IMG/VR virus record: IMGVR_UViG_3300036453_000012
Coordinates: 1 to 64,000 of that record
DNA from: a virus
Lineage: Duplodnaviria; Caudoviricetes
Direction: 5' to 3' (one strand)
DNA length: 64,000 nt
The position numbers and the translations under genes were made by a program. A model generated the notes under the pieces. That model was given only the letters and a program-made list of their open reading frames with translations, was not told the origin of the DNA and did not search any database. Numbering within the stretch: position 1 is the stretch's first letter; each line of letters starts with the position of its first letter. This document shows positions 20,681 to 61,640 of the stretch, piece after piece.

Positions 20681-21250
20681 ATCTATAAAGAAGCCTTTCA
20701 GTTGAAGGGCTTCTTGATTTACCCGCCAATCTTCTTCTACGGTGTAGGGGAATTGAATAGTGACTTTAAATTTCTCTATATCTTCTTTATCTACCTCAGG
20801 TTCCGAAACCTGCATAGGTAATCCAAAATCTTTAAAACCCATACTGTCACATAATAGCGGTCTAGTCCACACGATGAAGTGCGATACCATATCTGCAATA
20901 AGCTCACACGTACCTTCATTCCTAGCCTCTATTATAATAGCTGCTGTACCATTAATAAATACCTTGTTATATCTATCACTACTACCTCTTAGAGTAGATA
21001 CGCTTTCGCTATGAGATAGGTTATCTGATAGCCCTGTTTTTTGAATGTTAAAGGTTCCCCTAGTTACTAGTATCCTAGGTATCGCACCTATGCGTATTCT
21101 ATTAAAGTCGTTAACGGAAGATATTTCTAAGGTTCTAAGCTTATCATCTGGATCCCAGAATAATCCTGAGCTTTTAGCATAGTTAGCAAAGAAATATTTA
21201 AGAGGTTCCATTATAATAGTAGTAACCATAGCAGGAGAGAACTTAGGCAT
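20657..21250 (-). CDS. Tail completion/terminator-like virion protein
   Basis: 197 aa after neck gene; PRILVTRG...IIIEARNEGTCELIADMV pattern; position. Confidence 0.45.
   Translation of the reverse strand: MPKFSPAMVTTIIMEPLKYFFANYAKSSGLFWDPDDKLRTLEISSVNDFNRIRIGAIPRILVTRGTFNIQKTGLSDNLSHSESVSTLRGSSDRYNKVFINGTAAIIIEARNEGTCELIADMVSHFIVWTRPLLCDSMGFKDFGLPMQVSEPEVDKEDIEKFKVTIQFPYTVEEDWRVNQEALQLKGFFIDLGRVHGG
20688..20715. terminator. Bidirectional terminator
   Basis: AAGAAGCCTTTC-AGTT-GAAGGGCTTCTT at convergent junction. Confidence 0.65.
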
Positions 21251-21425
21251 AATGTCCTTTTTTAGTTTTACGAGGTTTGGAGTTTAGTTTCTGGTAGTGA
21301 CCATATAGGTCTTTGGCAGAATCCATAGTCTCTAATACCTTTTCTTCTTTAGAGTGTCCGGTAGCTACGACTAGTCTATGTAGTCCTCTACCTTTAGAAG
21401 CTATCTTCTCTAAATATTTATTCAT
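21243..21425 (-). CDS. Small basic protein with N-terminal NKYLEKIA tag
   Basis: MNKYLEKIASK. Confidence 0.7.
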   Translation of the reverse strand: MNKYLEKIASKGRGLHRLVVATGHSKEEKVLETMDSAKDLYGHYQKLNSKPRKTKKGHYA

Positions 21426-22300
21426 TTGTAATCCTCGGGAAAATCATTTTTAATTTTATCTATCAGGTAGTTCTCTATCGCTTCTTTACCTAGGATAACC
21501 ATAGTTAGAGTTTGTTTAACAGTCTTGGATTGAAGCTCTGTACAACTTACTTCCTCTATGCGATGTATCTCCCAGTCCCCAGACTTGATAAGGACATCGG
21601 AAGGGTGGGCCTCGGGAAAAGCTATGGTCCAACCGCTATTAGCGTTAGGCTCCGTCACACCATTATATCCGCGTTCCAGGGAATTACCTGTAGGATTGTA
21701 CTGTACATAGCAAGGAGCTGGTGCGTAAAAACCATCCTCAAATCCCGTACCTAAACAGGTATGACAATGATCTTTGGTGATCTTTTCAGTTTTGTAATCC
21801 CAACATTCAGTACATCTTTTTCCGTAAGTCTTACGTTTAAATAGAAAAGACTTGACTCCGACAAATTTAGATAGGAGAAAATATTCTCTACGGTTAATTT
21901 CCCTAGCCCTAATATCTGCAAAAGTAGAACGCTCAGTAGACCAAGTTACGGACTTAGATCTAATAATGGCGGAGCCGTCTTGGGGCACGGCCTCCACTAC
22001 ATAGAACCCGTTATTAAAGTTGCGGTATTCTTGGGTATCTTTATCTATTAGATAATTACCATTTATAGGGGTAAGGTTAAGCTTCTCAAATCCCGAGTCC
22101 TCCACCTGAGAAAAGTAGACATTAAATAAGCAAGTAGGCCACGTAGCTGGAACAGACCATTGTACCGCTATGTGTTTATACCATCTTGGATATAGAGTAA
22201 TATCTATGTCTGATGAGATTAGATTAGACGTAGATAGCTCTAAGTTTACCCCGAGTATGGGGGCAAAGAAGTAGCTGGGTTTGATAGAGTAGGATAGCAT
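21422..22300 (-). CDS. Neck/head-closure-like protein with Zn-binding CxxC pairs
   Basis: GKRCTECWD...HCHTCLGTGFEDGF; structural context. Confidence 0.55.
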   Translation of the reverse strand: MLSYSIKPSYFFAPILGVNLELSTSNLISSDIDITLYPRWYKHIAVQWSVPATWPTCLFNVYFSQVEDSGFEKLNLTPINGNYLIDKDTQEYRNFNNGFYVVEAVPQDGSAIIRSKSVTWSTERSTFADIRAREINRREYFLLSKFVGVKSFLFKRKTYGKRCTECWDYKTEKITKDHCHTCLGTGFEDGFYAPAPCYVQYNPTGNSLERGYNGVTEPNANSGWTIAFPEAHPSDVLIKSGDWEIHRIEEVSCTELQSKTVKQTLTMVILGKEAIENYLIDKIKNDFPEDYK

Positions 22301-22335
22301 GTTTCTATTTTAGATGTTACAGGGTAAATAGAAAA

Positions 22336-22365
22336 TTCAATAATAGACTTGTTTATTGGTATAAG
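22336..22365 (+). promoter_or_regulatory. Phage bipartite promoter
   Basis: TTCAA-N16-TGGTATAAG inside the late region, antisense to neighbours. Confidence 0.75.
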
Positions 22366-22370
22366 AATAG

Positions 22371-22509
22371 TATCAAGGAGTTTTAACAAACACTTCTCTG
22401 ATATGAAGTTGCAAGTGAAGTTCCCATTTGTCCCTGGTAGGACGAGTCCGGTGATTAATACTCACCTTTTCCGGGATTTGAGGTTATTCCCCTCATCCCG
22501 GATTTTTTT
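22371..22509 (+). ncRNA. Candidate ~140-nt small RNA
   Basis: Promoter, several hairpins, terminator 22470-22509; no well-placed SD/ORF; intergenic. Confidence 0.5.
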
Positions 22510-24183: not shown

Positions 24184-24210
24184 ATATCAGTCCTGTATTA
24201 ATCATATTCT

Positions 24211-24444
24211 TTATTTTAGTAGAGCTAGTAGAGAAAATCCTATTGCTCCACCAATATACGTAGCTATTGCATCCCAGATATCACAAGTGTGGTTCGGATG
24301 AAAGTAGTCATAAATCTCTTTACCCGTACCTGCTACAAATACCAGAACTAGAGCTGCTGCAGTTTCTAAAACCACCCAAGCCATTATAAATATCATAAAA
24401 CCTACTATAATATGTAATAATTTATCTTTAGGTATATTAGTCAT
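24211..24444 (-). CDS. Small multi-pass membrane protein (holin/VanZ-like)
   Basis: DKLLHIIVGF...GKEIYDY...DAIATYIGG. Confidence 0.55.
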   Translation of the reverse strand: MTNIPKDKLLHIIVGFMIFIMAWVVLETAAALVLVFVAGTGKEIYDYFHPNHTCDIWDAIATYIGGAIGFSLLALLK

Positions 24445-35147: not shown

Positions 35148-36038
35148 TTAGAAATTGCAAACTTGAATAGCGTTGATGTTACCAATACCAGCACCGATGG
35201 CTTCGTAGGTGCGGAACTCGATCATATCTGCTTCCGTTTTTAGGAACACGGTTGGCTCCTGTAGGGAGTAGAACTGACCTAGATACTCTTGAGGAGCAAA
35301 GATGATAGCTTGGTTAGCAGCGACTAGTTCAGTCTTATTCGTAGTGATGATCTTGTAGCCGAAGAAGTTATCTAGGCTAGTTTGACCACGGAATAGACCA
35401 CCTGCGGTTTCACTACCAACAGTGGTAGCAGGTTGAGCTAGTAGATCAGCGTACATTGATTGTGACATCAAGATACATCCGACCGGTAGCTTACGGACTA
35501 GAAGTTTCTTAACTGCGTTCATTAGGTTAGGGATAGTGAAACCACCTGAGATAGTGAACACGTTACCAGCAGCAGCAGCGATAGCATTAATGTTACCGAT
35601 GAAGTTGGTATCTTCTTGTGCTTGAATATCTTTGACACTGTTCTCTTGCAAGATAGTGCGGATATCAGTACGATACGTAGCTAGTTCAAACTTTGACTTC
35701 TTGAACGTTACTGATTCGATCTTTTGGAACGTAACAGGATAGCGACCACCTTTGAAGTAACGAATTTCGCCACGACCTAGGAAAGGCATATTGGCTGCTA
35801 CCGAATCAGGCTCAGTCTCAACGATAATGGTTGGCTCTTCGGTGAGTTGACGGTCTAGTTCTGATGCAGTGATCTGAACTGGGGTCAAAATCTTACGGGT
35901 AAAGCCGTCTTCCCGTAGCTTCTGACGAACGAAAGCTGACATAGCCGCGCCTGCTTCTTTTTCTAGGCCTTGATCAATCTTATCTAGGAAAGACTGGTTT
36001 AGGAATTGAACGTTAATGGTTTCTGTATTATAGCTCAT
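35148..36038 (-). CDS. Major capsid protein (HK97 fold)
   Basis: 296 aa; FVRQKLREDGFTRKIL; last gene of protease-scaffold-decoration block; C-terminal YEAIGAGIGN. Confidence 0.82.
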   Translation of the reverse strand: MSYNTETINVQFLNQSFLDKIDQGLEKEAGAAMSAFVRQKLREDGFTRKILTPVQITASELDRQLTEEPTIIVETEPDSVAANMPFLGRGEIRYFKGGRYPVTFQKIESVTFKKSKFELATYRTDIRTILQENSVKDIQAQEDTNFIGNINAIAAAAGNVFTISGGFTIPNLMNAVKKLLVRKLPVGCILMSQSMYADLLAQPATTVGSETAGGLFRGQTSLDNFFGYKIITTNKTELVAANQAIIFAPQEYLGQFYSLQEPTVFLKTEADMIEFRTYEAIGAGIGNINAIQVCNF

Positions 36039-36685: not shown

Positions 36686-36907
36686 TTAAAAAATAGATTT
36701 AGTTTGAGCTCTAGTATGTTGATTACGAAGACTAGTAATACCCTCTTTATTTTGAGTAGTAGAAATAGAAGAGTGTAATTTAGTAATAGGCTCAATACCG
36801 GATTTATTAATACCGCTAGCAGTAGGAGCCCTTGTCTTAGCTAAGCTCTTAACTCCAGAAAAGTTAAGGGCCGCTATTTTAAGTAGGTACCTATTAACCA
36901 TTACCAA
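36686..36907 (-). CDS. Small basic protein with NRYLLKIA tag
   Basis: MVNRYLLKIAAL. Confidence 0.55.
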   Translation of the reverse strand: MVMVNRYLLKIAALNFSGVKSLAKTRAPTASGINKSGIEPITKLHSSISTTQNKEGITSLRNQHTRAQTKSIF

Positions 36908-37469
36908 GCATAAATTCTAGTAGGGGATCCGTCACAGGACGCGAGTACCCGGAGGCTTGACCCATCTCCCAAGGCTGCTCCATAACAGAGGCAATCTTAG
37001 TAAGTACTTCACTATCCATCTTTTGAAGCGCGGCCAAATCTTCATTAGTGAACGCACCATTGGAAGCAGCTTTAGTAATACTAGTAGGAAGAACAACTTC
37101 AGAGTATGCATTATCTTGTGCGCTTTTAGTCAAAGCGTCGATCTCAGCTTCTAGTGAATCTATATATTGTGCAGCCTTCTGCATAAGATCAGATGAGGTA
37201 TCTTCAACAAGAGTCTCTGACTCATACGAAGCTAAGTCTTTAAGATGAACTCCAGCAGCTTTGACCATTTTTACAGCCGTATCAATATCGATACCTGCCA
37301 TGGTTAATTGAGAGCAAGCTTCTTTCTCCATGTCTTGTTGATCTAGTTCACGACGAGCGTCTGCTTCGGTAAAGCCAGCTTCTTTGAGCAAACCCACCGC
37401 AACTTCGTAAGGGGAAGCTTCTTGTAGTTCTGCTGCTTTTGTTAAGAGTTGTTGTGATAGGTTTGTCAT
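36894..37469 (-). CDS. Acidic scaffold-like protein with many K-x-A sites
   Basis: TKAA, LKEA, EKEA, VKAA, QKAA, TKSA, TKIA. Confidence 0.6.
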   Translation of the reverse strand: MTNLSQQLLTKAAELQEASPYEVAVGLLKEAGFTEADARRELDQQDMEKEACSQLTMAGIDIDTAVKMVKAAGVHLKDLASYESETLVEDTSSDLMQKAAQYIDSLEAEIDALTKSAQDNAYSEVVLPTSITKAASNGAFTNEDLAALQKMDSEVLTKIASVMEQPWEMGQASGYSRPVTDPLLEFMLGNG

Positions 37470-37478: not shown

Positions 37479-37913
37479 TTAATCCTTGCTGTATTGATCG
37501 TGCATACGTTCGGACATGCCTTCCAGGTTTCTAGTCTGTCTACCTTTAACCGCCATCAACCCACCAGCTGTGGAACCTAGGAAACCACCTAACATAGCCG
37601 ATCCTCCCTGTAAGTAAGGATTTTTAGCGAACTTTGGAATTTTACTTAAACCATGCCCTATAGCCGATCCTACTCCAAACCCTGCTGCACCACCTACTAT
37701 ATTACCACCTATAGACTTTATCGCGGTACCCTTACCTTGTTCCGACCCCAGTGCTGATTGATGTTTCATGTTACCCCACCAACCTTTGTCAGATACCGTC
37801 TTACCGTATTGGCTAGCAATCCCTTGCTCCATTCTACCCGCTCCCTCCCAGTAGTGTTTCTTAGCGTCTGCTTTATAATCTGCGGCAATCTTCTCTAAAT
37901 ACTTATTAGTCAT
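37479..37913 (-). CDS. Tagged internal virion protein with Gly-zipper
   Basis: MTNKYLEKIAAD; GGAAGFGVGSAIG. Confidence 0.65.
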   Translation of the reverse strand: MTNKYLEKIAADYKADAKKHYWEGAGRMEQGIASQYGKTVSDKGWWGNMKHQSALGSEQGKGTAIKSIGGNIVGGAAGFGVGSAIGHGLSKIPKFAKNPYLQGGSAMLGGFLGSTAGGLMAVKGRQTRNLEGMSERMHDQYSKD

Positions 37914-37915: not shown

Positions 37916-38899
37916 CTAATCCTGGGTTAATAATGTCGGATGCATTATGTTTAATTCTTTTAGGGCGTCATTATGAGCCATCTTATTACCTACATGTAGA
38001 GCTAATCCCCCTGCTAAACTACCGCCGATTAATCCCGCCAATGCAGGTCTACCACCTGTTTTACTTGCTTTATAAGCTAATCCTGCTCCTACTCCTAATC
38101 CAGTTACTCCAGGCAATATCCCAGTCTTCCAGTTATTATCAATAGACTTAGCATAGTGGTGGTATTGACTACGGTCTAGATTTACTCTAGGAGTAGCCCA
38201 GTCACCTCTAAAAGAACCTGAGTGGCCTTTGACGTTATAGCTCTCTTCTGCAATCTTTTCTAGGTAACGGTTGGAGGCTTGCTTATTCATATTCTCGATA
38301 TTATCTCTACGAGAAGACAACGCGTATGCACCAGAACCTACGAGAGCAGCACCCCCTAGTACTAGTGGATTTTTTACTAAATTCATTGCTGATCTCACCC
38401 TGATCCTGCCATAGTCAGTAGGTGCTACCCCCTTTTTAAATTGGTAGCCTATGCCGGGGTCTTTCATAACACTAAAATTATGCTTGGCATCTTCAGCCTT
38501 GTCCCGTAGCCCTGTCATAAGGTATTCTTTAATAAGGTGATAGTCTGCTTGTTTACTCATGCTCTCAGAGTTTCTCTTATTATTGAACTTAACAGCGGCG
38601 TAATCTCCTAGTAGTCCGATAGTACCGCTTACCGCACCTAATCCTATAGCTTTTTTAAAGCCAGGACTACGCAAAGTTTTTCCAGCAGAAGCGATAGGTG
38701 ACCTAGCTGCAGCCATTAAGCGCTTGCCTAGTGGGATAACGTTTTTTTCTTGAGGCCCATTTATACCTAGGGCATTAGCTACGGGATTAGAAAGCATACC
38801 ACCCCCGAACCCTACCGCACCAATCACGGCAGTATCTTTTAATTCAGAACTATGTGAGGGTTGGGTAGGTGCATTCAAGGAGGGGAGTGATTTACTCAT
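37916..38899 (-). CDS. Segmented internal virion protein (polyprotein-like)
   Basis: Three Gly-rich segments separated by MSKQA and MNKQASNRYLEKIAEE. Confidence 0.65.
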   Translation of the reverse strand: MSKSLPSLNAPTQPSHSSELKDTAVIGAVGFGGGMLSNPVANALGINGPQEKNVIPLGKRLMAAARSPIASAGKTLRSPGFKKAIGLGAVSGTIGLLGDYAAVKFNNKRNSESMSKQADYHLIKEYLMTGLRDKAEDAKHNFSVMKDPGIGYQFKKGVAPTDYGRIRVRSAMNLVKNPLVLGGAALVGSGAYALSSRRDNIENMNKQASNRYLEKIAEESYNVKGHSGSFRGDWATPRVNLDRSQYHHYAKSIDNNWKTGILPGVTGLGVGAGLAYKASKTGGRPALAGLIGGSLAGGLALHVGNKMAHNDALKELNIMHPTLLTQD

Positions 38900-39434: not shown

Positions 39435-40550
39435 TTAAGCGCCGTAAAGTTCGTATGATTTCTCGTTAACTAGGTTAACTGCTAGATCGTAGTCCACGCC
39501 GTTATAGCATAGTTCATCTAGGGCAGCTTTCTTTTCACGACCTAGTGCGTATGCACCTGCACCGCCTGCTGCTGCTAGACCTGCGGCCCCTGCGGCCGAC
39601 TTGCCCTTATTAGCGGCGATAGCATTGCCCGCCTGGGTAGCTTTGCCCTTAAGGTAAGTCGCACCTTTAGCTGCATTGCCATATGCTTTACCCGCTGCGC
39701 TACCGACTGCACCAGCAACAGAGTCCATACGACTAGCTTGTTTAACCATGGCAACCGCATAGTCAAAATCTACGCCTTGATCTAGAAGATCGTTTAGGGC
39801 AGCTTGCTTGACATGGGTGTCATACTCTGATTCTAGTGCGTCTGATGCTGACTTGACCATATCAACGGCTGAGTCAAAATCGTAGCCAGAATTGACTAGT
39901 GAGATAACAGCAGCAGTTTTCTCATGAGTTTCACCATCTAGGCCTTCAGGGCCGATTTGTTGATTCTGGTTAGGGGCTTGGCGTAGAACAGCAGCGCCTT
40001 CGGCACCTGAGTTATTACCGGTCATGTTTGAGTCTACCGCGCCATGAGCTTGTGCGTCTTGGACGATTGAATCAAAGATTTGGTTAATAGTGCCGCCGTT
40101 ACCTAGGCCATCGGTACCTGGGGTTGATTGAAAGATCTGGTCATGTTCAGCGCGTTGAGCCATTTGGTCTTGAAGCATCTTATTAGGTACGGCGCCTGGG
40201 GCTAGGCCACTCTCAGTATTAGTATCGCCGATACCAGCTTGTTTTAGGAGGGCTTGTGCTAGTGCTTTACCAGCGTCTGATGCTTGTTTGTTCATAGTGT
40301 CTTCACCTTTAGTAGTATTTGAATCGCTTTTTACGGAAGCAAACTTTTCCATAATTTCTCGTGCTAGTGCTGAACCCGATTTGTAGGCTGCTGACTTCTC
40401 AACTCCCTGCTCGTCTTTGTCTTCTTTAGTGTCTTTTTTTACAGACTTAGCGTCTTTATTTTCTTTGTCTTCCTTCTGGTCCGTACCGTCTTCCTTGTCT
40501 GGAAAACCTGCAGACTTTTCAAGACCGGCTAATAGGTCATCTAAATTCAT
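39435..40550 (-). CDS. Major scaffold/core protein
   Basis: Charged N-terminus, many K-x-A sites, three GxDxD repeats; directly after protease. Confidence 0.65.
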   Translation of the reverse strand: MNLDDLLAGLEKSAGFPDKEDGTDQKEDKENKDAKSVKKDTKEDKDEQGVEKSAAYKSGSALAREIMEKFASVKSDSNTTKGEDTMNKQASDAGKALAQALLKQAGIGDTNTESGLAPGAVPNKMLQDQMAQRAEHDQIFQSTPGTDGLGNGGTINQIFDSIVQDAQAHGAVDSNMTGNNSGAEGAAVLRQAPNQNQQIGPEGLDGETHEKTAAVISLVNSGYDFDSAVDMVKSASDALESEYDTHVKQAALNDLLDQGVDFDYAVAMVKQASRMDSVAGAVGSAAGKAYGNAAKGATYLKGKATQAGNAIAANKGKSAAGAAGLAAAGGAGAYALGREKKAALDELCYNGVDYDLAVNLVNEKSYELYGA

Positions 40551-40596: not shown

Positions 40597-42090
40597 CTAC
40601 TTCTTAATCGCCTGTATCATAGAGGCTTTGGCCAACTGATAGGATACTTTATAATCCGAAGCAGACTTTACTAAGTTTATTTTAACATGGGAATAAGCAT
40701 TAGCTTCTGCTGACTCCTTCATTTTAGCTTCGATTTGTCTAGAGATGTACCATTTCATAAGTAAAGCCGTGGAACCTATTCCTAGCAGCACCTTGATTAA
40801 TTTACCTATACTAGACTTATCTTCGGAGTGACCTGTAGACATTAGGAATTCCCGTACAGTAGGCTCAGGCACTGGGCCGTTACCTGCGTAACCTACGCCC
40901 GTACTTCTAGCTATATTCATTCCTCTCGCTGAACGAATACCTACGTACTCTGGAAACATGGAGCTAGAATCCATGTATGGACCTAACATATTCGCTACTT
41001 TAGTAATAGGCTGATGATTTGTTATACACGCATCCTCTGGTGGTAATATAAGGTTGGCAATACCGTGCTCCTCAACTAGCGCCTCAACTACGGGTCCGCA
41101 ACCCTTCATAGATGAACCGTTTTCTACTTGGCCTACTAGCTCTGCCAAGAAAGATACTGAAGGACTCATACCCATATGGGCTAGGGTAGCCATAACTTCA
41201 GGCAGTGGGAAATTCTTTAGAACTGAAATTAATTTTAACTCAGGATCTGCTACCTTGCTTAAGATTGGATCTAACGCGTGATCATAGTCAACTATTTGCC
41301 CATCAACTTCTTTTATTAACTCTGAGAGTTTTTTAAAGGCAGAGGCTTTAGTTAAAGTAGTGTCTGTTAACCCCTCTATTACAGCCATCTCGGCTGAGCC
41401 TATTACCGGTTCTGATGAGTTCTGGGCGGCCAGCTTTTGTAAGACGGATGAGGTTACGTCAGCTGGGCGGACAACTATTGACATGTCAAAGAATTTTAAG
41501 GGTGCTAGATTTAAAGACTGAACTTTTCTACCATCCGGATATACCTTGCCTAAATCGTCCCTTAAATGTGAACAGTACTCTTGCAAGGTATGCGCCTTGT
41601 TACCGCAGATAGAGCATACGTCATAGGCCGTTTTACAAGCCATTGAGGTTGCAGGGAACTCTCCCCTAGATAAGCGATCTACGATGTCGGATCCTTTTAC
41701 CTTATCAATCCAAGCAACTACCTCAACTCTATGCATGCGCTCGTTATACACGGAAAATACAACCTGACCTATTGCTATGGCTGGGTTTTTATTTTGATGA
41801 TTACGAAAAATGTGAGAGGGAGAGGTTACGAAAGTACCATGACAATCTATTAGATTGGCTTCTGGGAAATAGTCAGAGTTTCTATTAGCCCCAAAATACT
41901 CCCCAGCCCCCATAGCCAGTATGTGAACGTATATCTTAGTAGGATCAGGTACTATTCCTAAAGAAAATTGAGTGATACGGGAATCAGAGGCCTGCTTAAT
42001 CATACCTTTAGAAGAGTCTAAATCCAGTATGGTTATTTGAGGCTCATCTTTATAAAAAGAACTAGATTCCACCAGCTTAATAAGTGCCAT
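40597..42090 (-). CDS. Prohead (head maturation) protease with C-terminal extension
   Basis: GANRNSDYFP, HIFRNHQNK, TSMACKTAYDVCSICGN, CSHL, FFDMSIVVRPAD. Confidence 0.8.
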   Translation of the reverse strand: MALIKLVESSSFYKDEPQITILDLDSSKGMIKQASDSRITQFSLGIVPDPTKIYVHILAMGAGEYFGANRNSDYFPEANLIDCHGTFVTSPSHIFRNHQNKNPAIAIGQVVFSVYNERMHRVEVVAWIDKVKGSDIVDRLSRGEFPATSMACKTAYDVCSICGNKAHTLQEYCSHLRDDLGKVYPDGRKVQSLNLAPLKFFDMSIVVRPADVTSSVLQKLAAQNSSEPVIGSAEMAVIEGLTDTTLTKASAFKKLSELIKEVDGQIVDYDHALDPILSKVADPELKLISVLKNFPLPEVMATLAHMGMSPSVSFLAELVGQVENGSSMKGCGPVVEALVEEHGIANLILPPEDACITNHQPITKVANMLGPYMDSSSMFPEYVGIRSARGMNIARSTGVGYAGNGPVPEPTVREFLMSTGHSEDKSSIGKLIKVLLGIGSTALLMKWYISRQIEAKMKESAEANAYSHVKINLVKSASDYKVSYQLAKASMIQAIKK

Positions 42091-42092: not shown

Positions 42093-42860
42093 TTATTTTC
42101 CACCCTTAAATGAATGCTTCAGATACGCCGCACCACCTGCAATACCTGCCGCACCTAGCGCAGCCATACCTACTCCTTTTCCGAATCTACTTCTATTCTT
42201 AGACGCGTATTCTAGAATTTCCTTAGCAGAGTTTTTCTTATAGGTAGGGGATCCCACGATATGATCTGTGTGGATTCCCCCTTTGGCTGTGTAGACGCTA
42301 TCTTGAAAAGTGTGCTTCATAGCCTCGTCTTGCATCCTGTCGCCAAAATTAAACTTAGTAGCATTCTTATAGTTTGTGTATTCAGGATTATCTACTCCCC
42401 TAAGACCTTCTTTCCAGTCAGGTACGTTGATCTTGGTGACACTTTTATTATTACCAGTGAGCATTCTTTTTAGTACAGGAAGCTCCGGCTTGTTAGCATC
42501 CCCTACCATGCCTAGGGTTTGTTTAATATGAGTACCAGATTCTATCTTATTCTGGTTCTCCCCGTACATCATTGCCCTATACTTACTCTTCTCAGCAAAA
42601 ACTAAATCTTTATTATGTTCTGTTAATCCAGCTATATGGGAGACCCCGGTAGTTCTATTAGGGGTCAACCCCTCCATCTTAATCTTAGCGGTATTAGCAT
42701 CAGAAGACCCGTGGAAGTAAGTACTTCTACCGGTCAAGTTTCCTCTACTATAGTTATGCTGAATAACCCCAGCTCCGCCCAGCACTGCGGTCCCCGCCAA
42801 AACCTTTTTATCGTCGGGATCTACTAGATCTTCTGCAATTTTAGTCAAATACTTATTCAT
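42093..42860 (-). CDS. Tagged virion protein with ADP-ribosyltransferase-like domain
   Basis: MNKYLTKIAED; YFHGS...KIKMEGLTP...VFAEKSKYRAMMY. Confidence 0.55.
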   Translation of the reverse strand: MNKYLTKIAEDLVDPDDKKVLAGTAVLGGAGVIQHNYSRGNLTGRSTYFHGSSDANTAKIKMEGLTPNRTTGVSHIAGLTEHNKDLVFAEKSKYRAMMYGENQNKIESGTHIKQTLGMVGDANKPELPVLKRMLTGNNKSVTKINVPDWKEGLRGVDNPEYTNYKNATKFNFGDRMQDEAMKHTFQDSVYTAKGGIHTDHIVGSPTYKKNSAKEILEYASKNRSRFGKGVGMAALGAAGIAGGAAYLKHSFKGGK

Positions 42861-42863: not shown

Positions 42864-43340
42864 TTATAGTTTTTTAGGGGATTGTCGTAGTGCAGGTACG
42901 GCGCTAGGAACAATAGTAGATGAACTTAAAGTTCTATTTATATTTTGTAACGCAGCTAAAGATCGTCTTTCTAAATTAGCTTTATCTTGATTAGTAATAG
43001 CGGTAATTTTACCGTTATTATAATTAGCAGCAGATAGCCCTAACCCCGTACCCGACATCAGCAAACTGGCCTTTGCAATATGACTAGACTCTTTAAAAGC
43101 ATTTTTCATATTGTTAGCTATTCTGCTAATGGCGATCTTCTCTAGATATTTGTTACCTGCATTTTTAGTCATCTCTTGATACGGGCCTTCAGACTCTTGG
43201 TTATATTTGAACTGAGAATTTTGATTGCCAGTAACATCCGCAGGAGAAGTTATCCCCTGCGTAAAAGAACCTGTGGAGTTTCTAACACTAGGCTGATTAT
43301 TAGATATAGGTTTTTGGGCTGAAGCTGTCATTCTCTGCAT
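42864..43340 (-). CDS. Tagged internal virion protein
   Basis: Internal GNKYLEKIAIS; the true start may be nearer the tag. Confidence 0.55.
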   Translation of the reverse strand: MQRMTASAQKPISNNQPSVRNSTGSFTQGITSPADVTGNQNSQFKYNQESEGPYQEMTKNAGNKYLEKIAISRIANNMKNAFKESSHIAKASLLMSGTGLGLSAANYNNGKITAITNQDKANLERRSLAALQNINRTLSSSTIVPSAVPALRQSPKKL

Positions 43341-43886: not shown

Positions 43887-44918
43887 TTACGAACGTTGTA
43901 GAGCAGACCAGGCATCTTTACTTTCACCTGTGCTAGTATCTTTACCAGGGCTATACATGGCTGCATCAAATCCTATTGTAGCACCTGTACCAATAACTGC
44001 TCCGATACCTAAACCTTTACGCATTGGTGTCAGAGGTTTACCAATTTTAGCTTTAACTACGTTACCTGCCTTATTACCTAGGTTAACTGCGGTATTGGCT
44101 ATACCTTTTCCGATAGCCTTAATAGGTGTAGCTACGACGGATCCTATCATCTTACCAATACCTGAACCCATAGCTCCTAGGAATGCTACTTTAAGTAAGG
44201 CGCTTCTATCTGATAAAGCTTGTTTCTCGGAAATAGAACTTTGAAGTAGACGCGCCTCTTTATATAGATCCGATAACCGAATAACCTGTTTAAGCTCAGC
44301 CTGTTTAAATAGTCCAGAATCAGAGTAAACTTTAGTTTCCCCAAACGCCATCTTAGTTAAGGCACTAAATTCTAGCCCGGACGTTACCGTAGCTAATTTT
44401 TCTAAGCCTTGGCTGTCAGCCTTTACTGCACTAGCGGCCTTAATCATCTCCGGAAGAATAGTGGTTGCTCTATCCTTTAGTTCCTGTAGCTGAGCATCGT
44501 TAATAGCCGCTTGCTTAATAAACAGAACTCGTTGTTCAGCGTCTACCAATTTCGTAGAAGTAAAGCTTGAGGGTACTGATTTTCCTAGAGAGGCGGATTT
44601 AGTAATAGTAGTAGCGTAACCTTGACTGGACTCAGGTAAACTGACCTTTGCCATAACTTCTGCATATTTACATAGCGGAAATTCAATAGTACGATCATCC
44701 GTAAGAGTTAGTACTTTCAGGTAGGCGATAGAGTTGGTAGCCTCTACCGAACGTTGAATTTGTTCGGAGTTAAGTTGAAGGGATGACGCTTGTTTGGCCA
44801 AGCCTTCACTTAACGGAACTTTATGGTTTAAGAAACCCTCTACCGTCTTAATGGAGATGTCTCGAATCTGATCTGAGGTAATTGATGGCATAGGGTTCCT
44901 ATAGGTGCGGTAATGCAA
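43887..44918 (-). CDS. Virion core protein with many K-x-A sites
   Basis: KQAS, TKSA, IKQAA, EKLA, LKVA; Gly-rich C-terminus; start may be the internal ATG (MPSIT). Confidence 0.65.
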   Translation of the reverse strand: MHYRTYRNPMPSITSDQIRDISIKTVEGFLNHKVPLSEGLAKQASSLQLNSEQIQRSVEATNSIAYLKVLTLTDDRTIEFPLCKYAEVMAKVSLPESSQGYATTITKSASLGKSVPSSFTSTKLVDAEQRVLFIKQAAINDAQLQELKDRATTILPEMIKAASAVKADSQGLEKLATVTSGLEFSALTKMAFGETKVYSDSGLFKQAELKQVIRLSDLYKEARLLQSSISEKQALSDRSALLKVAFLGAMGSGIGKMIGSVVATPIKAIGKGIANTAVNLGNKAGNVVKAKIGKPLTPMRKGLGIGAVIGTGATIGFDAAMYSPGKDTSTGESKDAWSALQRS

Positions 44919-44937: not shown

Positions 44938-45078
44938 TTAACCGTGCCCTGTATAGTGTTGAAACCGCCTAAGCTTAGGTTTTTTTATTTTCCTAGGACG
45001 GTGAATGGCCCTCTCACTCCGAGGTGTCTCCGGAGGTTTGAGCATTTTGGCAATCTTTTCTAAATATTTGTTACTCAT
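44938..45078 (-). CDS. 46-aa very basic tagged peptide (not in ORF track)
   Basis: MSNKYLEKIAKMLKPPETPRSERAIHRPRKIKKPKLRRFQHYTGHG. Confidence 0.7.
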   Translation of the reverse strand: MSNKYLEKIAKMLKPPETPRSERAIHRPRKIKKPKLRRFQHYTGHG

Positions 45079-45782: not shown

Positions 45783-46280
45783 TTAAGACGACATATCTTT
45801 CTTACGGCTAAGAGCATACGCTCCTAGCCCTAGAGCTCCAGCAGCGCCTATACCTAGGCCGATCTTACCTTTGGTTCCTAGTTTGAAGACCTGTTTAGCA
45901 GGAGAGGGTCTCTCTACTAACGTAGGCTTTTCTACCCGAATACCCCCTACTAAAGGTTTTTCTACCGTAGGTTCATACTTGGGAAGACCGTGATCAACCC
46001 TAAGTTGTACAGGTAACCTAGGGTATGGATCACCCATTTTTTTAGAAAACCCGGCATTATGTGCAGTCATACGTTTATGAGTACTTTCTGCATGATACCT
46101 ATTAAATTCAGGAGAAAAACTGGGGTTCATAAGACTAGAATGTACCCTTACTTTATGGTCTTGGGAGTCCATAAACTTTTGTAGTCTTTCCTGTGTGGCA
46201 TTTGAACCATGTATATTTTTCTGTATCCACTCTGTAGATACCGCAATCTTCTCTAAATATTTATTTTTAGACATGATCAA
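45783..46280 (-). CDS. Tagged internal virion protein
   Basis: KNKYLEKIAVS; C-terminal GIGAAGALGLGAYAL. Confidence 0.7.
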   Translation of the reverse strand: MIMSKNKYLEKIAVSTEWIQKNIHGSNATQERLQKFMDSQDHKVRVHSSLMNPSFSPEFNRYHAESTHKRMTAHNAGFSKKMGDPYPRLPVQLRVDHGLPKYEPTVEKPLVGGIRVEKPTLVERPSPAKQVFKLGTKGKIGLGIGAAGALGLGAYALSRKKDMSS

Positions 46281-52734: not shown

Positions 52735-52736
52735 TC

Positions 52737-53876: not shown

Positions 53877-53877
53877 A

Positions 53878-56476: not shown

Positions 56477-57778
56477 ATGATAACTATCCCCCACGGTCAA
56501 GATGTCCTACTAACTAGACAAAAACACGAAGCAGACAGAGCCGGTCTTCATTACGATTATAGAATGGTTATTGGAGAGGTTGCCCATAGTTGGGCTACTA
56601 AAAAAGAGTTACCTACTGAAGGCAATTCTATTATTCTCTGGGAGCAGCCTATTCATAGCGCAGCCTATGCTTTAACTGAACATTTAGTTATTCCCAAGGG
56701 TCAGTACGGGGCAGGTACTACTACCCTAGACTTGGCTATGCGAGGGGCTATCTCTAATCCTGAGAATAGCAAAGACAAGTTTGTACTTACCGTTAGTGGA
56801 GGAGATAGATATCTGTTTAAAGAAACACCTGGCTTTGGGCAAGGAGCGTGGCTGTTCCGTGCGTTAGGTAAGGCTAAAGATATTACCCCTACAAAAGAAT
56901 ATAGTATGACTAAAGTAGCACCTAACAAATATCTAGACAAAGTAGCCTCCTTGGTACTAGGAGGCATAGCTACTCACTTAGCCCAAAACGTGGGAACAAA
57001 AGTAGCATTAGGAAGTAAGCGGGTATCCAAGTATTTAGCCAATTCATTTTCTGAGGGCGTTCACGGAGTAGTAAATACTAGTCTTAAAGCTAAAGCGGCT
57101 AGATTCCTAACAGGCGCAGGATTACCAGACATCGCAATGGCGCATAAGCAAGTTCATGAACTCGGTAGGAAACTGGCACCTGTACTAGGGGTGGCTACTA
57201 AGAGACAACAAGTAGGATTACGAATGTTATCTCAAGGACGCATCTCTGATTTTACTAAACGAGATTTTCATAAAGATCCATTACTACAGAAAGCGTATGG
57301 CTTAGCATCCGATAAGATGAAGCTTCCAGAAATGAGTTCATTAGGAGCTAATGCAGGCAAAATAGAATCTGTGTTTAAAGATAAGACTCATCCGCTGGCA
57401 TCCAACATAGTGCATGGTATAAGTAGAGGCAATACTCCTATCGGTAAAAACTTTAAGCCTGGAGCTATGACTGTTAAAAACCCTCTACTAGGAGCAGCAG
57501 CTATAGGTGCGGCAGATCCTGCTGCAGGAGTTCTGAGCGGAGTAAAGACTCTTATGTCTAGCAAGTCTTTTAGTGGTACTCGGGTAGGTGGAAAAATAAA
57601 TCATTTCTTGGAAAATGAATTTGTTAAAAAGCCTATAAGCCAAGGTAGAGAACTATCTCGAATAGGTGGGGTTATAAATAATCTTAAACATAAGGCTTCA
57701 GAGTTCCTTATAAGCCCAGTCTCTGCTCAGCTAAAAAGAACATCGGCGGCTATCTCCGATGCTATCAAAACACATTAA
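56477..57778 (+). CDS. LigD-type 3-prime phosphoesterase domain fused to a tagged virion-protein domain
   Basis: QKHEADRAGLHYDYR...HSWATKK...IPKGQYGAG; then TKVAPNKYLDKVAS. Confidence 0.8.
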   Translation: MITIPHGQDVLLTRQKHEADRAGLHYDYRMVIGEVAHSWATKKELPTEGNSIILWEQPIHSAAYALTEHLVIPKGQYGAGTTTLDLAMRGAISNPENSKDKFVLTVSGGDRYLFKETPGFGQGAWLFRALGKAKDITPTKEYSMTKVAPNKYLDKVASLVLGGIATHLAQNVGTKVALGSKRVSKYLANSFSEGVHGVVNTSLKAKAARFLTGAGLPDIAMAHKQVHELGRKLAPVLGVATKRQQVGLRMLSQGRISDFTKRDFHKDPLLQKAYGLASDKMKLPEMSSLGANAGKIESVFKDKTHPLASNIVHGISRGNTPIGKNFKPGAMTVKNPLLGAAAIGAADPAAGVLSGVKTLMSSKSFSGTRVGGKINHFLENEFVKKPISQGRELSRIGGVINNLKHKASEFLISPVSAQLKRTSAAISDAIKTH

Positions 57779-57867
57779 CGATGTTTATCTATCCAGTCCC
57801 AGACTAGTATGCCTAGAGCTAGGACTATGGCTAGTGTTACTCCTAGATGATCTATTAATAGATACAT
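57775..57867 (-). CDS. 30-aa membrane peptide with own promoter (not in ORF track)
   Basis: MYLLIDHLGVTLAIVLALGILVWDWIDKHR; AAGGG SD. Confidence 0.6.
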   Translation of the reverse strand: MYLLIDHLGVTLAIVLALGILVWDWIDKHR

Positions 57868-57900
57868 ATTTTTACCCTTTAAGATAGTTTGTATACATAT

Positions 57901-57930
57901 CTTATACCAATAAACGGACTAAATCTTGAA
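57901..57930 (-). promoter_or_regulatory. Phage bipartite promoter (minus strand)
   Basis: Reverse complement TTCAA-N16-TGGTATAAG. Confidence 0.75.
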
Positions 57931-59386
57931 CAAATATTTAACTAAAATAGCCTACGATTTAAAAGAACATCAGTCTCGTTCAGTAGATAAACTTATGGAA
58001 ACTGGTGGACTTATTCTTAATCACTCTACCGGCTCTGGTAAAACCTTAACTATCCTGGAGGCTATTAAACGAGTTCAAGAATTAGATCCTAAAGGTAAGA
58101 GTAAGCAGTTAGTCATCACCCCCGCCTCCCTGACAACTAATATTCATAAAGAGATGAAGAAGCATGACGTAGGTATTGATCCTTCTAGAGTCGAATCTAT
58201 TAGCTACGAAAAAGCGGTGAATGATGCTATGAGATTGAGCCACACGCAATATTCCTTAGTGGCACTGGATGAAGCTCATAAATTACGCAATACAGGTACC
58301 AAGAGATTTGCCAAGCTCAACAAGCTAATAGACAGGGCCGACTATAAGTTATTGGCCACGGCAACCCCTATCTATAATTCCCCCTCAGATATATCTCCGT
58401 TAGTGAACCTTGTATCCGGAGAAAAACTCCTACCTACCAACCGTGGATTATTTGAAGGTAGATACGTCACTGAAGTTAAGTCTCCTAAAAAAGGATTGCT
58501 TGGCAGCATGATAACCGGACCTGCCGCACCCAATACCATTCGTATTAAGAACGGGACGGAGCTTAAACAGATACTTCAGATGTACGTGGATAACTATAGT
58601 CTAAGAGATGATCCTAGTTCCTCTGAGAGTTTTCCAGGAAGTACTCACCATACCATAGAAACCCACATGTCCCCCGAGCAAGAGAAGGTATATAAGTACT
58701 TAGAAGGAAATATACCTTACCTTATCAGGATGAAGATTCGTAATAATTTACCGTTAGATAAAAAAGAGTCGGCAGCATTAAATGCGTTCTCTATGGGCGT
58801 AAGGCAGGCCTCTAATTCTATTAAGCCGTACACGCTGCATGATAACGTAGAACGTAGCCCTAAGCTAACCAAGGCTGTTTCTGAATTAGCCAGACATGCA
58901 GCTACTACCCCTAACTTTAAAGCTGTAGTATATTCTAACTATTTGAAAGCAGGGTTGGAAGATTACTCGGATGCGTTGATAGATGCTAGGATGGACCATA
59001 TCGTATATCACGGTGGATTGAATAAGAAACAAAAAGATCAAGCAGTGCTGGATTATAACTCAGGTAAGATTCCCGTATTGCTTATCTCCTCGTCAGGGGC
59101 CGAAGGTTTGGATCTTAGAGGAACAAAGCTTATTCAGATTCTAGAACCTCACTTTAACAATTCTAAAATACAACAAGTAACAGGTAGAGGTATTCGATTT
59201 AATTCTCATGCACACTTGCCGGAGGAAGAGCGTCACGTAATAGTTCAACATTACCTATCTACGTTTAGTCCTGGTATATTTGGACCTAGCAAAGCTAAGA
59301 CTATTGATCAGTACCTAAAACAGAATAGTCAAGGCAAAGACTTAGTTGTAGATAAGATAAACGAATTGATAAAGAATAGTGATTAA
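57926..59386 (+). CDS. SNF2/SF2 helicase with N-terminal NKYLTKIA tag
   Basis: HSTGSGKT, DEAH, TATP, SSGAEGLDL, QVTGRGIR. Confidence 0.9.
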   Translation: MNKYLTKIAYDLKEHQSRSVDKLMETGGLILNHSTGSGKTLTILEAIKRVQELDPKGKSKQLVITPASLTTNIHKEMKKHDVGIDPSRVESISYEKAVNDAMRLSHTQYSLVALDEAHKLRNTGTKRFAKLNKLIDRADYKLLATATPIYNSPSDISPLVNLVSGEKLLPTNRGLFEGRYVTEVKSPKKGLLGSMITGPAAPNTIRIKNGTELKQILQMYVDNYSLRDDPSSSESFPGSTHHTIETHMSPEQEKVYKYLEGNIPYLIRMKIRNNLPLDKKESAALNAFSMGVRQASNSIKPYTLHDNVERSPKLTKAVSELARHAATTPNFKAVVYSNYLKAGLEDYSDALIDARMDHIVYHGGLNKKQKDQAVLDYNSGKIPVLLISSSGAEGLDLRGTKLIQILEPHFNNSKIQQVTGRGIRFNSHAHLPEEERHVIVQHYLSTFSPGIFGPSKAKTIDQYLKQNSQGKDLVVDKINELIKNSD

Positions 59387-59675
59387 TATGACAAATAAGT
59401 ATTTAGAGAAAATAGCGGCTCGAGGCTTTCCTTCTAAAAAGCCCTCTACCAATTCTCACTGGTCACCTGAAGAGTTTACTACTCGATTTAAGGAGATGTA
59501 TAAGCATAGCCTGAAGACTGGCAAGATTAAAGAGAAGGACGCTAAGAGCTATCGTTGGGGAAGTACTATCGGCGTGGCCAATTCCGAAGGTAAGCTGTCT
59601 AAAATAATGGTAGCTTCAAAGAATAAAAAAGTTAAGAACTTAGTTCTCACACATAAAGATTACAAAGATCAATAG
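59379..59675 (+). CDS. Small basic tagged protein
   Basis: MTNKYLEKIAAR. Confidence 0.7.
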   Translation: MINMTNKYLEKIAARGFPSKKPSTNSHWSPEEFTTRFKEMYKHSLKTGKIKEKDAKSYRWGSTIGVANSEGKLSKIMVASKNKKVKNLVLTHKDYKDQ

Positions 59676-59680
59676 ATTAT

Positions 59681-60355
59681 ATGAGCAATAAATACTTAGA
59701 GAAAATAGCTTCAGCAGCATCCGATCTACGCGTAATCCTACAAGATCATCACCACGCAGTAGAACAGATTGATGCCCCGATCTTAGAGATGAGAAATAGA
59801 ATGGATCTATATCACTCTAATCCTTATCAGTATAGTACCGACCCTTCTCACGAGGGTATCTCTGAGCAATTAGAAGCAATGAATGAAGCTGCCAAAGATA
59901 CTGAAGAGCGTCATCTTCGCCGGGAATTAGGATTGGATGCCAAGCATGATGAGAATGTAATTCACACTGCAAAAGCTATGATGTCATCACACGGAATGGA
60001 TCCTAGCCTAATAACGGATTCTAAGATTGCCAATAACGTATATAATGAATTGGTGTCTACCCCCTCTGGCGGTTGGAACGGGTATCAGGTATCCAAAAAC
60101 CTGGGAGTGATTGGGGGTATTGTAGCGGGTGGGTTAGGTGGGGCTTTTGCTTCAGGTAGACATTTCGGTAGAGGCACTGAAATGCTAGGAGCTATAGGGG
60201 GTGCAATCGCGGGTGGAGTCGGTAGTCACTACGCTTTGAAAAGTGGGATGGGTCACCTCATTGAAGGTAGAAATACGGAAATTCATGATAAGTATGAAGG
60301 TAATATAGAAAATGCTTATGCTACTCTTAATCGTAGGTTGCAGAAGCAGGATTAA
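59681..60355 (+). CDS. Tagged protein with Gly-zipper
   Basis: MSNKYLEKIASA; GGIVAGGLGGAF...GAIGGAIAGGVG. Confidence 0.7.
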   Translation: MSNKYLEKIASAASDLRVILQDHHHAVEQIDAPILEMRNRMDLYHSNPYQYSTDPSHEGISEQLEAMNEAAKDTEERHLRRELGLDAKHDENVIHTAKAMMSSHGMDPSLITDSKIANNVYNELVSTPSGGWNGYQVSKNLGVIGGIVAGGLGGAFASGRHFGRGTEMLGAIGGAIAGGVGSHYALKSGMGHLIEGRNTEIHDKYEGNIENAYATLNRRLQKQD

Positions 60356-60357
60356 CT

Positions 60358-61245
60358 TTGTTTCAACGAGCTAAATACAAGTCAGACTCAGATAGGGATT
60401 GGTTTTCAGTCCCTAATCCTGTTGCTACTCTTAAGAGGGACGGGGCTCATTTTTTTCTTTCAATAGACTCCGCTGGAAATCAACACTACTACTCACGTAG
60501 AGAGTCAGTTAAAGGGGGGTTTCCAGAACGTACCTCACAGATCCCACACATATCTTCTGTTAAGTTACCTCAATACGCTGGCCATACATATAGTGTAGAG
60601 TTAATACATACTGGACATGATAAGAACACCCCTGAGTCTCATCCTAAAGCAAGTGGTATTCTTAATTCTTTGACTCCTAAATCTATTCAGACTCAGCAGG
60701 AGACAGGCCCTATTCGCGCAGTATTATTAGATGTTATTAATCCTGCTTTACCAACATATAGAGACAAGTTGCTTCATATGAAAGAATTAGAAAAAGCCGT
60801 TGGTAAGCCAGATTATCTATTCATAGACATGCCTGCTATTACTAAGCCTGACATAGTTAAACTTATAGAATCTACCAAGAAGCAGGGACGAGAGGGTGTT
60901 ATTATAACTTCGTTAACTGAACCTGAACATAATAATCCTCGTATAAAAATTAAGCATATAGACACGTATAACCTAAAAGTAAGTAAAGTTTTACAGGAGT
61001 TCGATATATCTGGTAAGCCTAAGAACTCAATGGGTTCTTTAGAAGTAATAGATGCTTCCGGTAGAGTAGTAGCTAATGTTGGGACAGGCTTTAGTAAAGC
61101 TGATCGAGAAGGAATTTGGATAGATAAAGAAGAGTGGACAGGTAGACTTATACAAGTTAAAACCTTAGGGTTGCTTAACCCTGATGGTAGACTTAGATCC
61201 CCTGTTTTTAACGGCATTGCCGATGGAGAACTAGACAGATTATGA
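60358..61245 (+). CDS. lig: Minimal ATP-dependent DNA ligase
   Basis: KRDG (KxDG), EGVII, KIK, OB-fold VGTGFS, RSPVF. Confidence 0.88.
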   Translation: MFQRAKYKSDSDRDWFSVPNPVATLKRDGAHFFLSIDSAGNQHYYSRRESVKGGFPERTSQIPHISSVKLPQYAGHTYSVELIHTGHDKNTPESHPKASGILNSLTPKSIQTQQETGPIRAVLLDVINPALPTYRDKLLHMKELEKAVGKPDYLFIDMPAITKPDIVKLIESTKKQGREGVIITSLTEPEHNNPRIKIKHIDTYNLKVSKVLQEFDISGKPKNSMGSLEVIDASGRVVANVGTGFSKADREGIWIDKEEWTGRLIQVKTLGLLNPDGRLRSPVFNGIADGELDRL

Positions 61246-61640
61246 ATAGCGAATTTAAACCAGATTTAACTCCTGATCAAATGGAGGCCCTAGGAGTACT
61301 AGCCAGTCAGTATTACAATGCCGACCCTAAGACTCACAACTTCTTTAAGGTCGATGCTTCTATGAAGAAGTGGCCTGACGAATGGAAGAAAGAATCCGCC
61401 CCGATGGGGTGGTTTGATTGGTATAAGCAATACAGTGCAGGGATACGAAGTGCAGATGATGAAAGACAGATAAAACGTTGGCTAAGTTTTAAGTCTAGAC
61501 ATTTAGCTCAATTACTTAAAGCGGATCCTACTGGAGAAGACTTTAGTATCCAACCCCGTAGAAGACAAGCCCTATTAAACTGGGGAATAGCTCCGGGGCT
61601 GGATAAGAATAAATATCTAGATAGGATTAATAAAGTCTAG
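61242..61640 (+). CDS. Conserved Trp-rich protein of unknown function
   Basis: FKPDLTP..M..LG, NFFKV.AS, GWFDWY, DDERQIKRW, RQALLNW; C-terminal NKYLDRI. Confidence 0.7.
   Translation: MNSEFKPDLTPDQMEALGVLASQYYNADPKTHNFFKVDASMKKWPDEWKKESAPMGWFDWYKQYSAGIRSADDERQIKRWLSFKSRHLAQLLKADPTGEDFSIQPRRRQALLNWGIAPGLDKNKYLDRINKV

Follow-up and report, generated by a model that had tools for sequence, protein, structure and literature searches.

NKYLEKIA, a short portable peptide on unrelated phage proteins and a candidate signal for capsid loading and processing

The DNA analysed here, called the window below, consists of the 64,000 nucleotides at positions 1 to 64,000 of IMG/VR record IMGVR_UViG_3300036453_000012 and represents the first 64 kb of a 76.7-kb phage contig (Caudoviricetes). 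It encodes a set of otherwise unrelated proteins that have in common an eight-residue peptide, typically NKYLEKIA and mostly N-terminal, which we call the tag. Its second half is the same motif that recurs in the proteins of the head core, and we propose that the tag probably marks proteins for loading into the capsid and for trimming there. Among named phages, the closest are Arash of Salmonella (181 kb) and the Vibrio phages D181, D148 and D69 (187 kb), with about 48-49% identity over a piece of the beta' subunit of RNA polymerase (RNAP). No near-identical phage records were found by megablast. The gene order of the Arash head block is kept, with the portal, RNAP beta, RNAP beta', proteins similar to gp218 to gp223 and the capsid protein gp226.

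The tag and its carriers

We scanned the DNA in six frames for the pattern N-[KR]-Y-[LIVM]-x-[KR]-[IVL]. There are 13 copies in the window and 14 in the contig, whereas shuffles yielded a mean of 0.23 copies and a maximum of 2. The fourteenth copy, MNRYLNKIAS, belongs to a gene just past the window (contig 64824-65039, + strand). The first-pass annotation, made from the sequence alone, had listed nine open reading frames (ORFs) with an N-terminal tag, three with an internal one and a C-terminal variant in 61242-61640. The scan finds the peptide in each of them, so the listing was right, although the total of 12 proteins given there becomes 13 carriers in the window and 14 in the contig. Ten of the 14 copies directly follow the start Met or lie 1-3 residues further on, three are internal and one is the C-terminal variant. 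The copies in the window are as follows.

21399..21422 (- strand), NKYLEKIA at residue 2 of a 60-aa basic protein (21243-21425)
36872..36895 (- strand), NRYLLKIA at the N-terminus of a 71-73-aa basic protein (36686-36907)
37884..37907 (- strand), NKYLEKIA at residue 3 of a 144-aa glycine-zipper protein (37479-37913)
38249..38272 (- strand), internal NRYLEKIA at residue 210 of 37916-38899, with N-K-Q-A-S just before it
42834..42857 (- strand), NKYLTKIA at residue 2 of a 255-aa protein resembling ADP-ribosyltransferases (ART-like), with a glycine-zipper C-terminus (42093-42860)
43131..43154 (- strand), internal NKYLEKIA at residue 63 of 42864-43340, with M-T-K-N-A-G just before it
45049..45072 (- strand), NKYLEKIA at residue 3 of a 46-aa, very basic peptide with an isoelectric point (pI) of 11.1 (44938-45078)
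46242..46265 (- strand), NKYLEKIA at the N-terminus of a 163-165-aa basic protein with a glycine-zipper end (45783-46280)
56924..56947 (+ strand), internal NKYLDKVA at residue 150 of 56477-57778
57929..57952 (+ strand), NKYLTKIA at residue 2 of an SNF2-family helicase with a TTG start (57926-59386)
59394..59417 (+ strand), NKYLEKIA at the N-terminus of a 95-98-aa basic protein (59379-59675)
59687..59710 (+ strand), NKYLEKIA at residue 3 of a 224-aa glycine-zipper protein, the sole acidic carrier (pI 5.9; 59681-60355)
61608..61631 (+ strand), C-terminal variant NKYLDRIN of 61242-61640, in which the K-x-A core is absent

Three of the listed ORFs have TTG or GTG starts that are probably a few codons too early. 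Their nearest ATG codons give genes at 36686-36901, 45783-46274 and 59388-59675, in which the Asn of the tag is residue 3 or 4. NKYLDRIN is the weakest member of the set and, judged by its sequence, a doubtful one; NKYLD[KR]IK variants are seen again in relatives.

Apart from the tag, the carriers are unrelated, as the first-pass annotation had stated. With the tag masked, BLASTP found no significant pair among the window carriers, and the best match (E 0.011) involves two glycine-zipper stretches. Together with the number of clusters across the clade (see below), this rules out paralogy as the source of the shared peptide. The carriers have pI values of 9-11, against a genome median of 6.2, and many of them have hydrophobic glycine-zipper C-terminal ends.

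The tag is not confined to this contig. We searched IMG/VR for exact patterns of DNA that encodes NKYLEKIA and obtained 93 stretches. They come from about 55 contigs, the longest of 193 kb, and many of these contigs harbour 2-5 copies. A motif scan of the whole contig and of relatives was one of the checks proposed with the first-pass annotation. The loci that we fetched encode 149 distinct tagged proteins falling into 70 BLAST clusters, and 137 of these proteins (92%) are tagged at the extreme N-terminus. Pfam names few of 91 tagged representatives, namely SNF2 helicase, glycine zippers, DnaJ, PARP and DUF6273. The complete genome of one relative, G001 (184,920 bp), has nine copies, all located between 36.8 and 77 kb, within a virion module that starts at the portal gene (24 kb). 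In Arash, we found no copy of the tag and no other common N-terminal peptide, the repeated peptides of that phage being those of paralogue families. The search for DNA encoding NKYLEKIA, applied to 596 Gb of prokaryotic genomes, yielded 115 single hits, 68 of which read NKYLEKIA in frame, inside unrelated proteins or short non-coding frames. These matches are scattered, single and at background level, which rules out a general bacterial or host motif. NKYLEKIA was not found in any paper of the library that we searched.

In the stretch from the capsid gene (35148-36038) to the RNAP beta' gene (49001-50833), eight of the window carriers alternate with conserved head genes. In the fetched loci, core head genes have 17-26 orthologues, whereas most carriers have none, even where the protease of the relative is 55-58% identical. 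The carriers sit in hot-spot slots flanked by conserved genes. A further slot, at 20657-22300, lies between two conserved tail-region genes. It harbours the 60-aa tagged protein in the window and a tagged helicase in G001, and it represents a tagged-cargo hot spot away from the head block. Its counterpart in Vibrio phage D181 is a 151-aa basic protein that starts with MDNVDTLLEKIAA. We considered whether the 60-aa protein might be a remnant of the helicase, which is ruled out as the two have no significant similarity.

The position of the tag raises the question of whether the peptide matters at all. The copies might come from a shared 5' gene segment, a recombination cassette or a translation-initiation cassette that shuffles genes, without any function of the peptide. 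The AT-rich composition of the tag, its location at gene starts and the presence of tagged genes in slots between conserved genes would fit such a cassette. However, codon choice varies between copies, and the 157 copies of the clade use each synonymous codon at each position (6 for Leu, 4 for Ala, 3 for Ile, and both for Asn, Lys, Tyr and Glu), which indicates that it is the peptide that is under selection, rather than a signal in the DNA or RNA. Nor is there conservation in the DNA upstream of the tag, and the motif is also found in frame internally and near C-termini. A DNA or RNA element in place of the peptide is ruled out by these observations, and we find a mere cassette barely credible.

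The prohead protease and the K-x-A motif

The conserved genes between which the carriers are inserted include those for the head core. The motif hydrophobic-x-K-x-A (henceforth a site) recurs in their products, as listed here with the numbers observed and expected.

35148..36038 (- strand), major capsid protein (56% identity with Arash gp226), whose one conserved site is G-L-E-K-E-A (residues 24-29, N-arm)
36894..37469 (- strand), 191-aa head-core or scaffold-like protein, 8 sites vs 0.4 expected, 7 of them conserved in 27 orthologues
39435..40550 (- strand), 371-aa scaffold-like protein of the Arash gp223 family, 7 sites vs 1.1 expected, 6 of them conserved
40597..42090 (- strand), prohead protease, from PHROG hits to head maturation protease and fold comparison, 5 sites vs 0.8 expected
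43887..44918 (- strand), 343-aa head-core protein of the Arash gp220 family, 10 sites vs 1.3 expected, 7 of them conserved

The protein encoded at 40597-42090 comprises a domain with the fold of T4 gp21 and herpesvirus assemblin (about residues 16-210), followed by a helical C-terminal extension. Its AlphaFold model, computed with a 42-sequence alignment, matches T4 gp21 (5jbl) with a Z score of 12.2 and a root-mean-square deviation (rmsd) of 2.8 A, 142/166 residues being aligned. The matches to herpesvirus proteases are well below that one (Z 7-9). At the sequence level, we found no relevant Pfam match and no PDB sequence hit for this protein. The hhalign comparison with T4 gp21 is weak (E 0.16), and in it the invariant H98 and S149 fall on H85 and S140 of gp21, which we take to be its catalytic residues. 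Going by the comparison of folds, on which the assignment rests, the modelled protein is a prohead protease of the T4 gp21 type. Soon after S149, the family also has an invariant cluster formed by C159, C162, C173 and H175 (protein residues 149-175), which may represent a zinc-binding insertion absent from T4 gp21.

Four K-x-A sites are invariant in the protease family (K32, K219, K248 and K475). They are found in or beside low-confidence linkers, and one of them directly follows the protease domain. More generally, hydrophobic-x-K-x-A is enriched 6-20-fold in head-core proteins only, and this holds for the window, G001 and Arash. In the latter, gp220 has 9 sites vs 0.8 expected, gp222 has 6 vs 0.9 and gp223 has 8 vs 0.6. 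No conserved site was found in tail proteins, RNAP beta', the helicase body or the ligase. In T4, the sites of gp21 are in gp22, gp67, gp68, gp23 and gp24 (PMC5694885). As the distribution of the motif over head-core proteins matches that of the gp21 sites in T4, we infer that the protease cuts after Ala. Herpesvirus assemblins, which have the same fold, cut after Ala and have an Ala/Ser specificity. Hydrophobic-x-K-x-A is thus a likely cleavage site, which would be a new specificity for a T4-type prohead protease.

The second half of the tag, L-E-K-I-A, is an instance of the same motif, and one of the scaffold sites even reads V-L-T-K-I-A-S. Since the motif studs the head-core proteins, the end of the tag is likely a cleavage site as well. 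The sole Glu of the tag is replaced with T, D, V, L or N in about one-sixth of the copies, and K-x-A is its conserved core. The Ala is invariant at the predicted P1 position, and the P1' position is occupied by S, A or G in most core sites and roughly half of the N-terminal tags. As for the true internal tags, they have a second K-x-A 2-5 residues upstream (T-K-N-A-G, N-K-Q-A-S, T-K-V-A-P and others). It is therefore possible, as a prediction, that internal tags are excised by cuts on both sides. In 37916-38899, for instance, the N-K-Q-A-S that precedes the tag places the latter between two K-x-A sites. This glycine-zipper protein has, in addition to the tag at residue 210, a decayed N-terminal sequence, MSKSLPSL, and its G001 orthologue (52905-53900) is tagged at the N-terminus and at residue 123. 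These different positions indicate that tags are gained and lost inside a single protein family.

K-x-A extends beyond the phages with the full tag. Members of the ART-like family all keep the Lys of K-x-[AG], even distant ones whose N-termini read YKEYIYKIA, YKNEIMKIA or KYVFEKLG. In Arash and D181, a minimal M-x-K-x-A-S is found at the starts of RNAP beta (MPKSAS, MPKKAS), gp100 (MEKQAS) and small glycine-zipper proteins. K-x-A is thus an old and widespread core, because it is kept in the ART-like family, Arash and D181. N-K-Y-L-E is, as far as the compared sequences tell, an extension specific to the subclade of the window and found on variable cargo. Across the clade, N-[KR]-Y precedes 103 of 160 N-terminal hydrophobic-x-K-x-A sites, and many of the others belong to core head proteins with varied upstream residues.

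RNAP beta is encoded by a single gene (1525 aa) in Arash and by two adjoining genes in G001. In our contig, it is split at 67045-73747, beyond the window, into two pieces about 2.1 kb apart, with three homologue-less ORFs between them. Adjoining the capsid gene, on the opposite strand, we found a large HNH/homing-endonuclease gene at 33629-35095 (phrog_559, E 4e-107).

Enzymes among the carriers and the readings of the tag

Three tagged families have homologues in Arash, and all three match abundant virion proteins of that phage, which does not have the full tag. In the mass spectrometry analysis of Arash virions, the helicase gp217 was detected with 1148 spectra, the ART-like gp96 with 816 and gp100 with 471, compared with 1333 for the capsid protein (PMC10585845).

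All clade orthologues of the helicase with a complete N-terminus are tagged, whereas Arash gp217 is untagged and starts 3 residues before the aligned Tyr. After the tag, the helicase would start with Y-D-L-K-E-H-Q, which aligns with M-P-E-Y-Q-L-R-D-H-Q of Arash. In the 56477-57778 protein, an N-terminal LigD 3'-phosphoesterase domain is followed by the tag as a joint and by a gp100-like domain, the latter being a stand-alone virion protein, gp100, in Arash. The tag of the window (NKYLDKVAS), its G001 counterpart (NEFLDKTAS) and the start of Arash gp100 (MEKQAS) fall in one alignment column, and the predicted post-tag start S-L-V-L-G-G aligns with M-E-K-Q-A-S-F-I-F. For both the helicase and the gp100-like domain, the N-terminus produced by the predicted cut would be a natural one. 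The LigD phosphoesterase domain is found upstream of the tag on two carriers, the gp100-like protein (in the window and G001) and an SNF2 helicase of another locus (L084:5888-7819(-)). It looks like a passenger that moves between tagged proteins, predicted to be freed by the cut at the tag.

As for the protein encoded at 42093-42860, the best fold match of its model is KptA/Tpt1 (Z 8.1, rmsd 2.5 A, 85 residues aligned). Its Foldseek list is headed by pertussis toxin S1 and PltA (E about 6e-3, weak), and Rhs ART toxins also appear at weak E-values. The leads from a language model and from Atlas structures agree with an ADP-ribosyltransferase-superfamily fold, which we consider likely, with moderate confidence, on the basis of the model. 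The same genome encodes a macro-domain protein at 32186-32644 (Pfam Macro, E 5e-7).

The tag might have nothing to do with the virion. It could dock proteins to a host or phage factor such as a chaperone, a protease adaptor or a polymerase, act as an N-terminal degron or stabiliser, or localise membrane-active glycine-zipper proteins. Many carriers do have hydrophobic glycine-zipper segments, and one block of tagged genes lies behind a promoter common to non-structural genes (see below). Yet soluble enzymes such as the helicase and the phosphoesterase are tagged too, the core of the tag is a motif confined to head-core proteins, all copies of the complete G001 genome lie within its virion module, and the Arash homologues are abundant in virions. 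A role unrelated to the virion is therefore quite improbable.

We favour instead, with some reserve, the view that NKYLEKIA is a capsid-loading and processing tag, functionally analogous to the capsid-targeting sequence (CTS) of T4 but with an Ala-type cleavage code. By this analogy, the tagged proteins are probably cargo that is loaded into the capsid, trimmed and injected. The tag would be a short amphipathic helix placed at the N-terminus of accessory proteins and occasionally between two domains. Its first half, N-K-Y, which occurs on variable cargo only, might dock the protein to the scaffold/protease core during prohead assembly. Its second half, L-x-K-x-A, would be recognised by the gp21-fold protease and cut after Ala, as the fold, the distribution of the motif and its conservation suggest. 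Cleavage would then free the mature protein within the head. The N-terminus of the helicase would then correspond to that of the untagged Arash helicase, and the gp100-like domain would begin where Arash gp100 would after removal of its M-E-K-Q-A. At infection, the cargo would leave the head with the DNA. The proposed cargo consists of small basic proteins, glycine-zipper proteins, the SNF2 helicase, the ART-fold protein and the LigD phosphoesterase as an N-terminal passenger.

Several observations weigh against this interpretation. The clade with the full tag is uncultured, and both the cutting of the tag and the presence of its carriers in virions are inferred there. Detection in Arash virions is by itself not very specific, because 116 of the 272 proteins are listed in the virion proteome of that phage (PMC10585845); the spectral counts of the three homologues are nevertheless high. 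The Arash helicase is packaged in quantity without a tag, and hence the tag is not the sole route into the head and other contacts can load proteins. The first-pass annotation had proposed a general loading code. The abundance of the three Arash homologues in virions would suit this, though indirectly, but the untagged helicase does not allow the tag to be the only way in. The Pfam Peptidase_S77 hidden Markov model has no match on the contig. The residue that follows the tag varies (S, E, A, G or K). The minimal N-terminal element of Arash and D181 is too short for a docking helix, and the conserved function may thus be cleavage alone. Finally, the block at 56477-61640 (+ strand) lies behind a sigma70-like promoter, TTCAA-N16-TGGTATAAG (12 copies), as non-structural genes do, and the expression of this block (56.5-61.6 kb) therefore need not be 'late'. 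A perfect copy of TTCAA-N16-TGGTATAAG is also present at 57901-57930 (- strand), where it overlaps the helicase start and is antisense into the phosphoesterase-fusion gene.

Some of these points would suit a more modest role, in which the tag is a processing signal only, that is, an efficient site for the prohead protease or a short propeptide. The proteins would enter the prohead otherwise, by means of bodies that bind the virion RNAP, DNA or scaffold, through their basic charge or through their glycine-zipper ends. K-x-A alone is conserved across the wider clade, the Arash helicase is packaged untagged, and the minimal five-residue element of Arash and D181 is better suited to cleavage than to docking. 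However, the sites of the scaffold and protease need hydrophobic-x-K-x-A only, whereas the cargo keeps N, K/R and Y near-invariant on 70 unrelated clusters, which argues for a second constraint beyond cleavage. T4 provides a precedent, with targeting and processing determinants side by side in one 10-residue peptide (PMC9026906). We regard processing alone as an unlikely, though not negligible, account of the tag.

It is tempting to go further than loading and processing and to regard the tag as a self-sufficient, position-independent load-and-release module. N-K-Y would dock any protein, the Ala-specific gp21-type protease would free it at K-x-A, and passengers fused upstream would be carried along, like the LigD phosphoesterase on its two carriers. 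We put this bolder version forward as a tentative possibility that may well be wrong. If it is true, these phages would have a programmable protein-injection system with dozens of swappable effectors, the 8-mer could be used for delivery, and the K-x-A code would tie T4-type to herpesvirus-type capsid proteases in specificity.

If the capsid-loading interpretation is correct, the proteins that are carried in the head and injected can be read from the sequence for a whole clade of large uncultured phages. Besides a helicase, the injected set would include a phosphoesterase for DNA ends, an enzyme resembling ADP-ribosyltransferases and many basic and membrane-active orphan proteins, and it would be the part of the phage proteome likeliest to meet host defences first. 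In the window, we also found an RNA-repair pair at 52737-54750, an Rnl1-type RNA ligase (phrog_562, E 4e-54) followed by a polynucleotide kinase-phosphatase (HAD_PNKP, E 8e-45), which is similar to the T4 answer to tRNA-cutting defences. The predicted cleavage code (hydrophobic-x-K-x-A, after Ala) can be tested in the cultured phages Arash, D181, D148 and D69, and the 8-mer is a small peptide that might serve to load foreign proteins into capsids. T4 already provides the concept, and the present case is of value for its scale, its different code and its testability. What is new is that the second half of the tag equals a motif enriched and conserved only in head-core proteins, namely the scaffold-like proteins, the protease linkers and the capsid N-arm.

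Comparison with known systems

The CTS of T4 is the sole conserved part of diverse internal proteins, which it targets to the scaffolding core before being removed by gp21 (PMC3012670, PMC9026906). Residues 4 and 7 of the CTS are important in targeting, and its residues 8 and 10 in processing (PMC9026906, PMC3012670). The T4 internal proteins are described as basic (PMC9026906). Like the CTS of IPII and IPIII, and the related propeptides on IPI and Alt, the tag is a short N-terminal peptide that is the only common part of unrelated, fast-evolving and mostly basic proteins. At its end it has, in addition, the motif at which a gp21-fold protease, itself encoded in the head module, is predicted to cut; the T4 CTS likewise ends in the I-x-E of gp21. 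The T4 cargo includes an ADP-ribosyltransferase-type enzyme, Alt, and the proposed cargo here includes the protein with an ART-like fold. The tag and the T4 CTS are identical at five of nine positions, including Y4, a targeting determinant in T4 (PMC9026906). The identities reported in the first-pass annotation (M1, Y4, E6, I8 and A9 of MNKYLEKIA) are correct against MKTYQEFIAE in the T4 record; this likeness is a lead and no proof of common descent.

The differences from T4 are also clear. The cut is predicted after Ala in K-x-A, unlike the T4 cut after Glu in (L/I)-x-E. The tag is present on far more families (70 clusters clade-wide, 14 genes in 77 kb), it is also found internally as a domain joint or near the C-terminus, and the phages concerned have a multisubunit virion RNAP and are not T4-like. 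The cargo tag in the manner of the T4 CTS that had been proposed at the outset is thus retained in part. There is a portable peptide on unrelated, mostly hypervariable basic proteins, encoded among portal, protease, scaffold and capsid genes, with a gp21-fold protease in the same block, and the peptide ends in a likely cleavage motif. What does not carry over from T4 is the cut after Glu, the likely one here being after Ala.

The giant phages phiKZ, 201phi2-1 and SPN3US also have a gp21-related protease with a C-terminal extension, many internal head proteins and a packaged virion RNAP. In these phages, the protease extension is autoprocessed, propeptides have been proposed to target cargo, and the gp175/gp245-type proteases cut S/A/G-x-E (PMC5694885). 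Their propeptides are mostly longer than 100 residues and have no single portable sequence, with Glu at P1, whereas the tag described here has 8-11 residues, ends in K-x-A and has Ala as predicted P1.

The herpesvirus assemblin (pUL26) has the same protease fold (Z 7-9) and a similar layout, with a protease domain, a cleavage site and a scaffold-like extension (PMC4498786). As in herpesvirus sites, the predicted cut in our system is after Ala, often followed by Ser. In contrast, herpesvirus sites lack a Lys at P3, and they do not serve as a portable tag for accessory cargo.

Lastly, the cargo-loading peptides of encapsulins and the encapsulation peptides of microcompartments are short, transferable peptides that load unrelated enzymes into a shell, the encapsulin shell having the HK97 fold. 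Encapsulin peptides are usually C-terminal and uncleaved, and they bind the shell directly, with no protease, whereas the tag is N-terminal in 92% of cases and overlaps a putative protease motif. Among these systems, the one described here would work like that of T4, yet it is not a sequence member of it.

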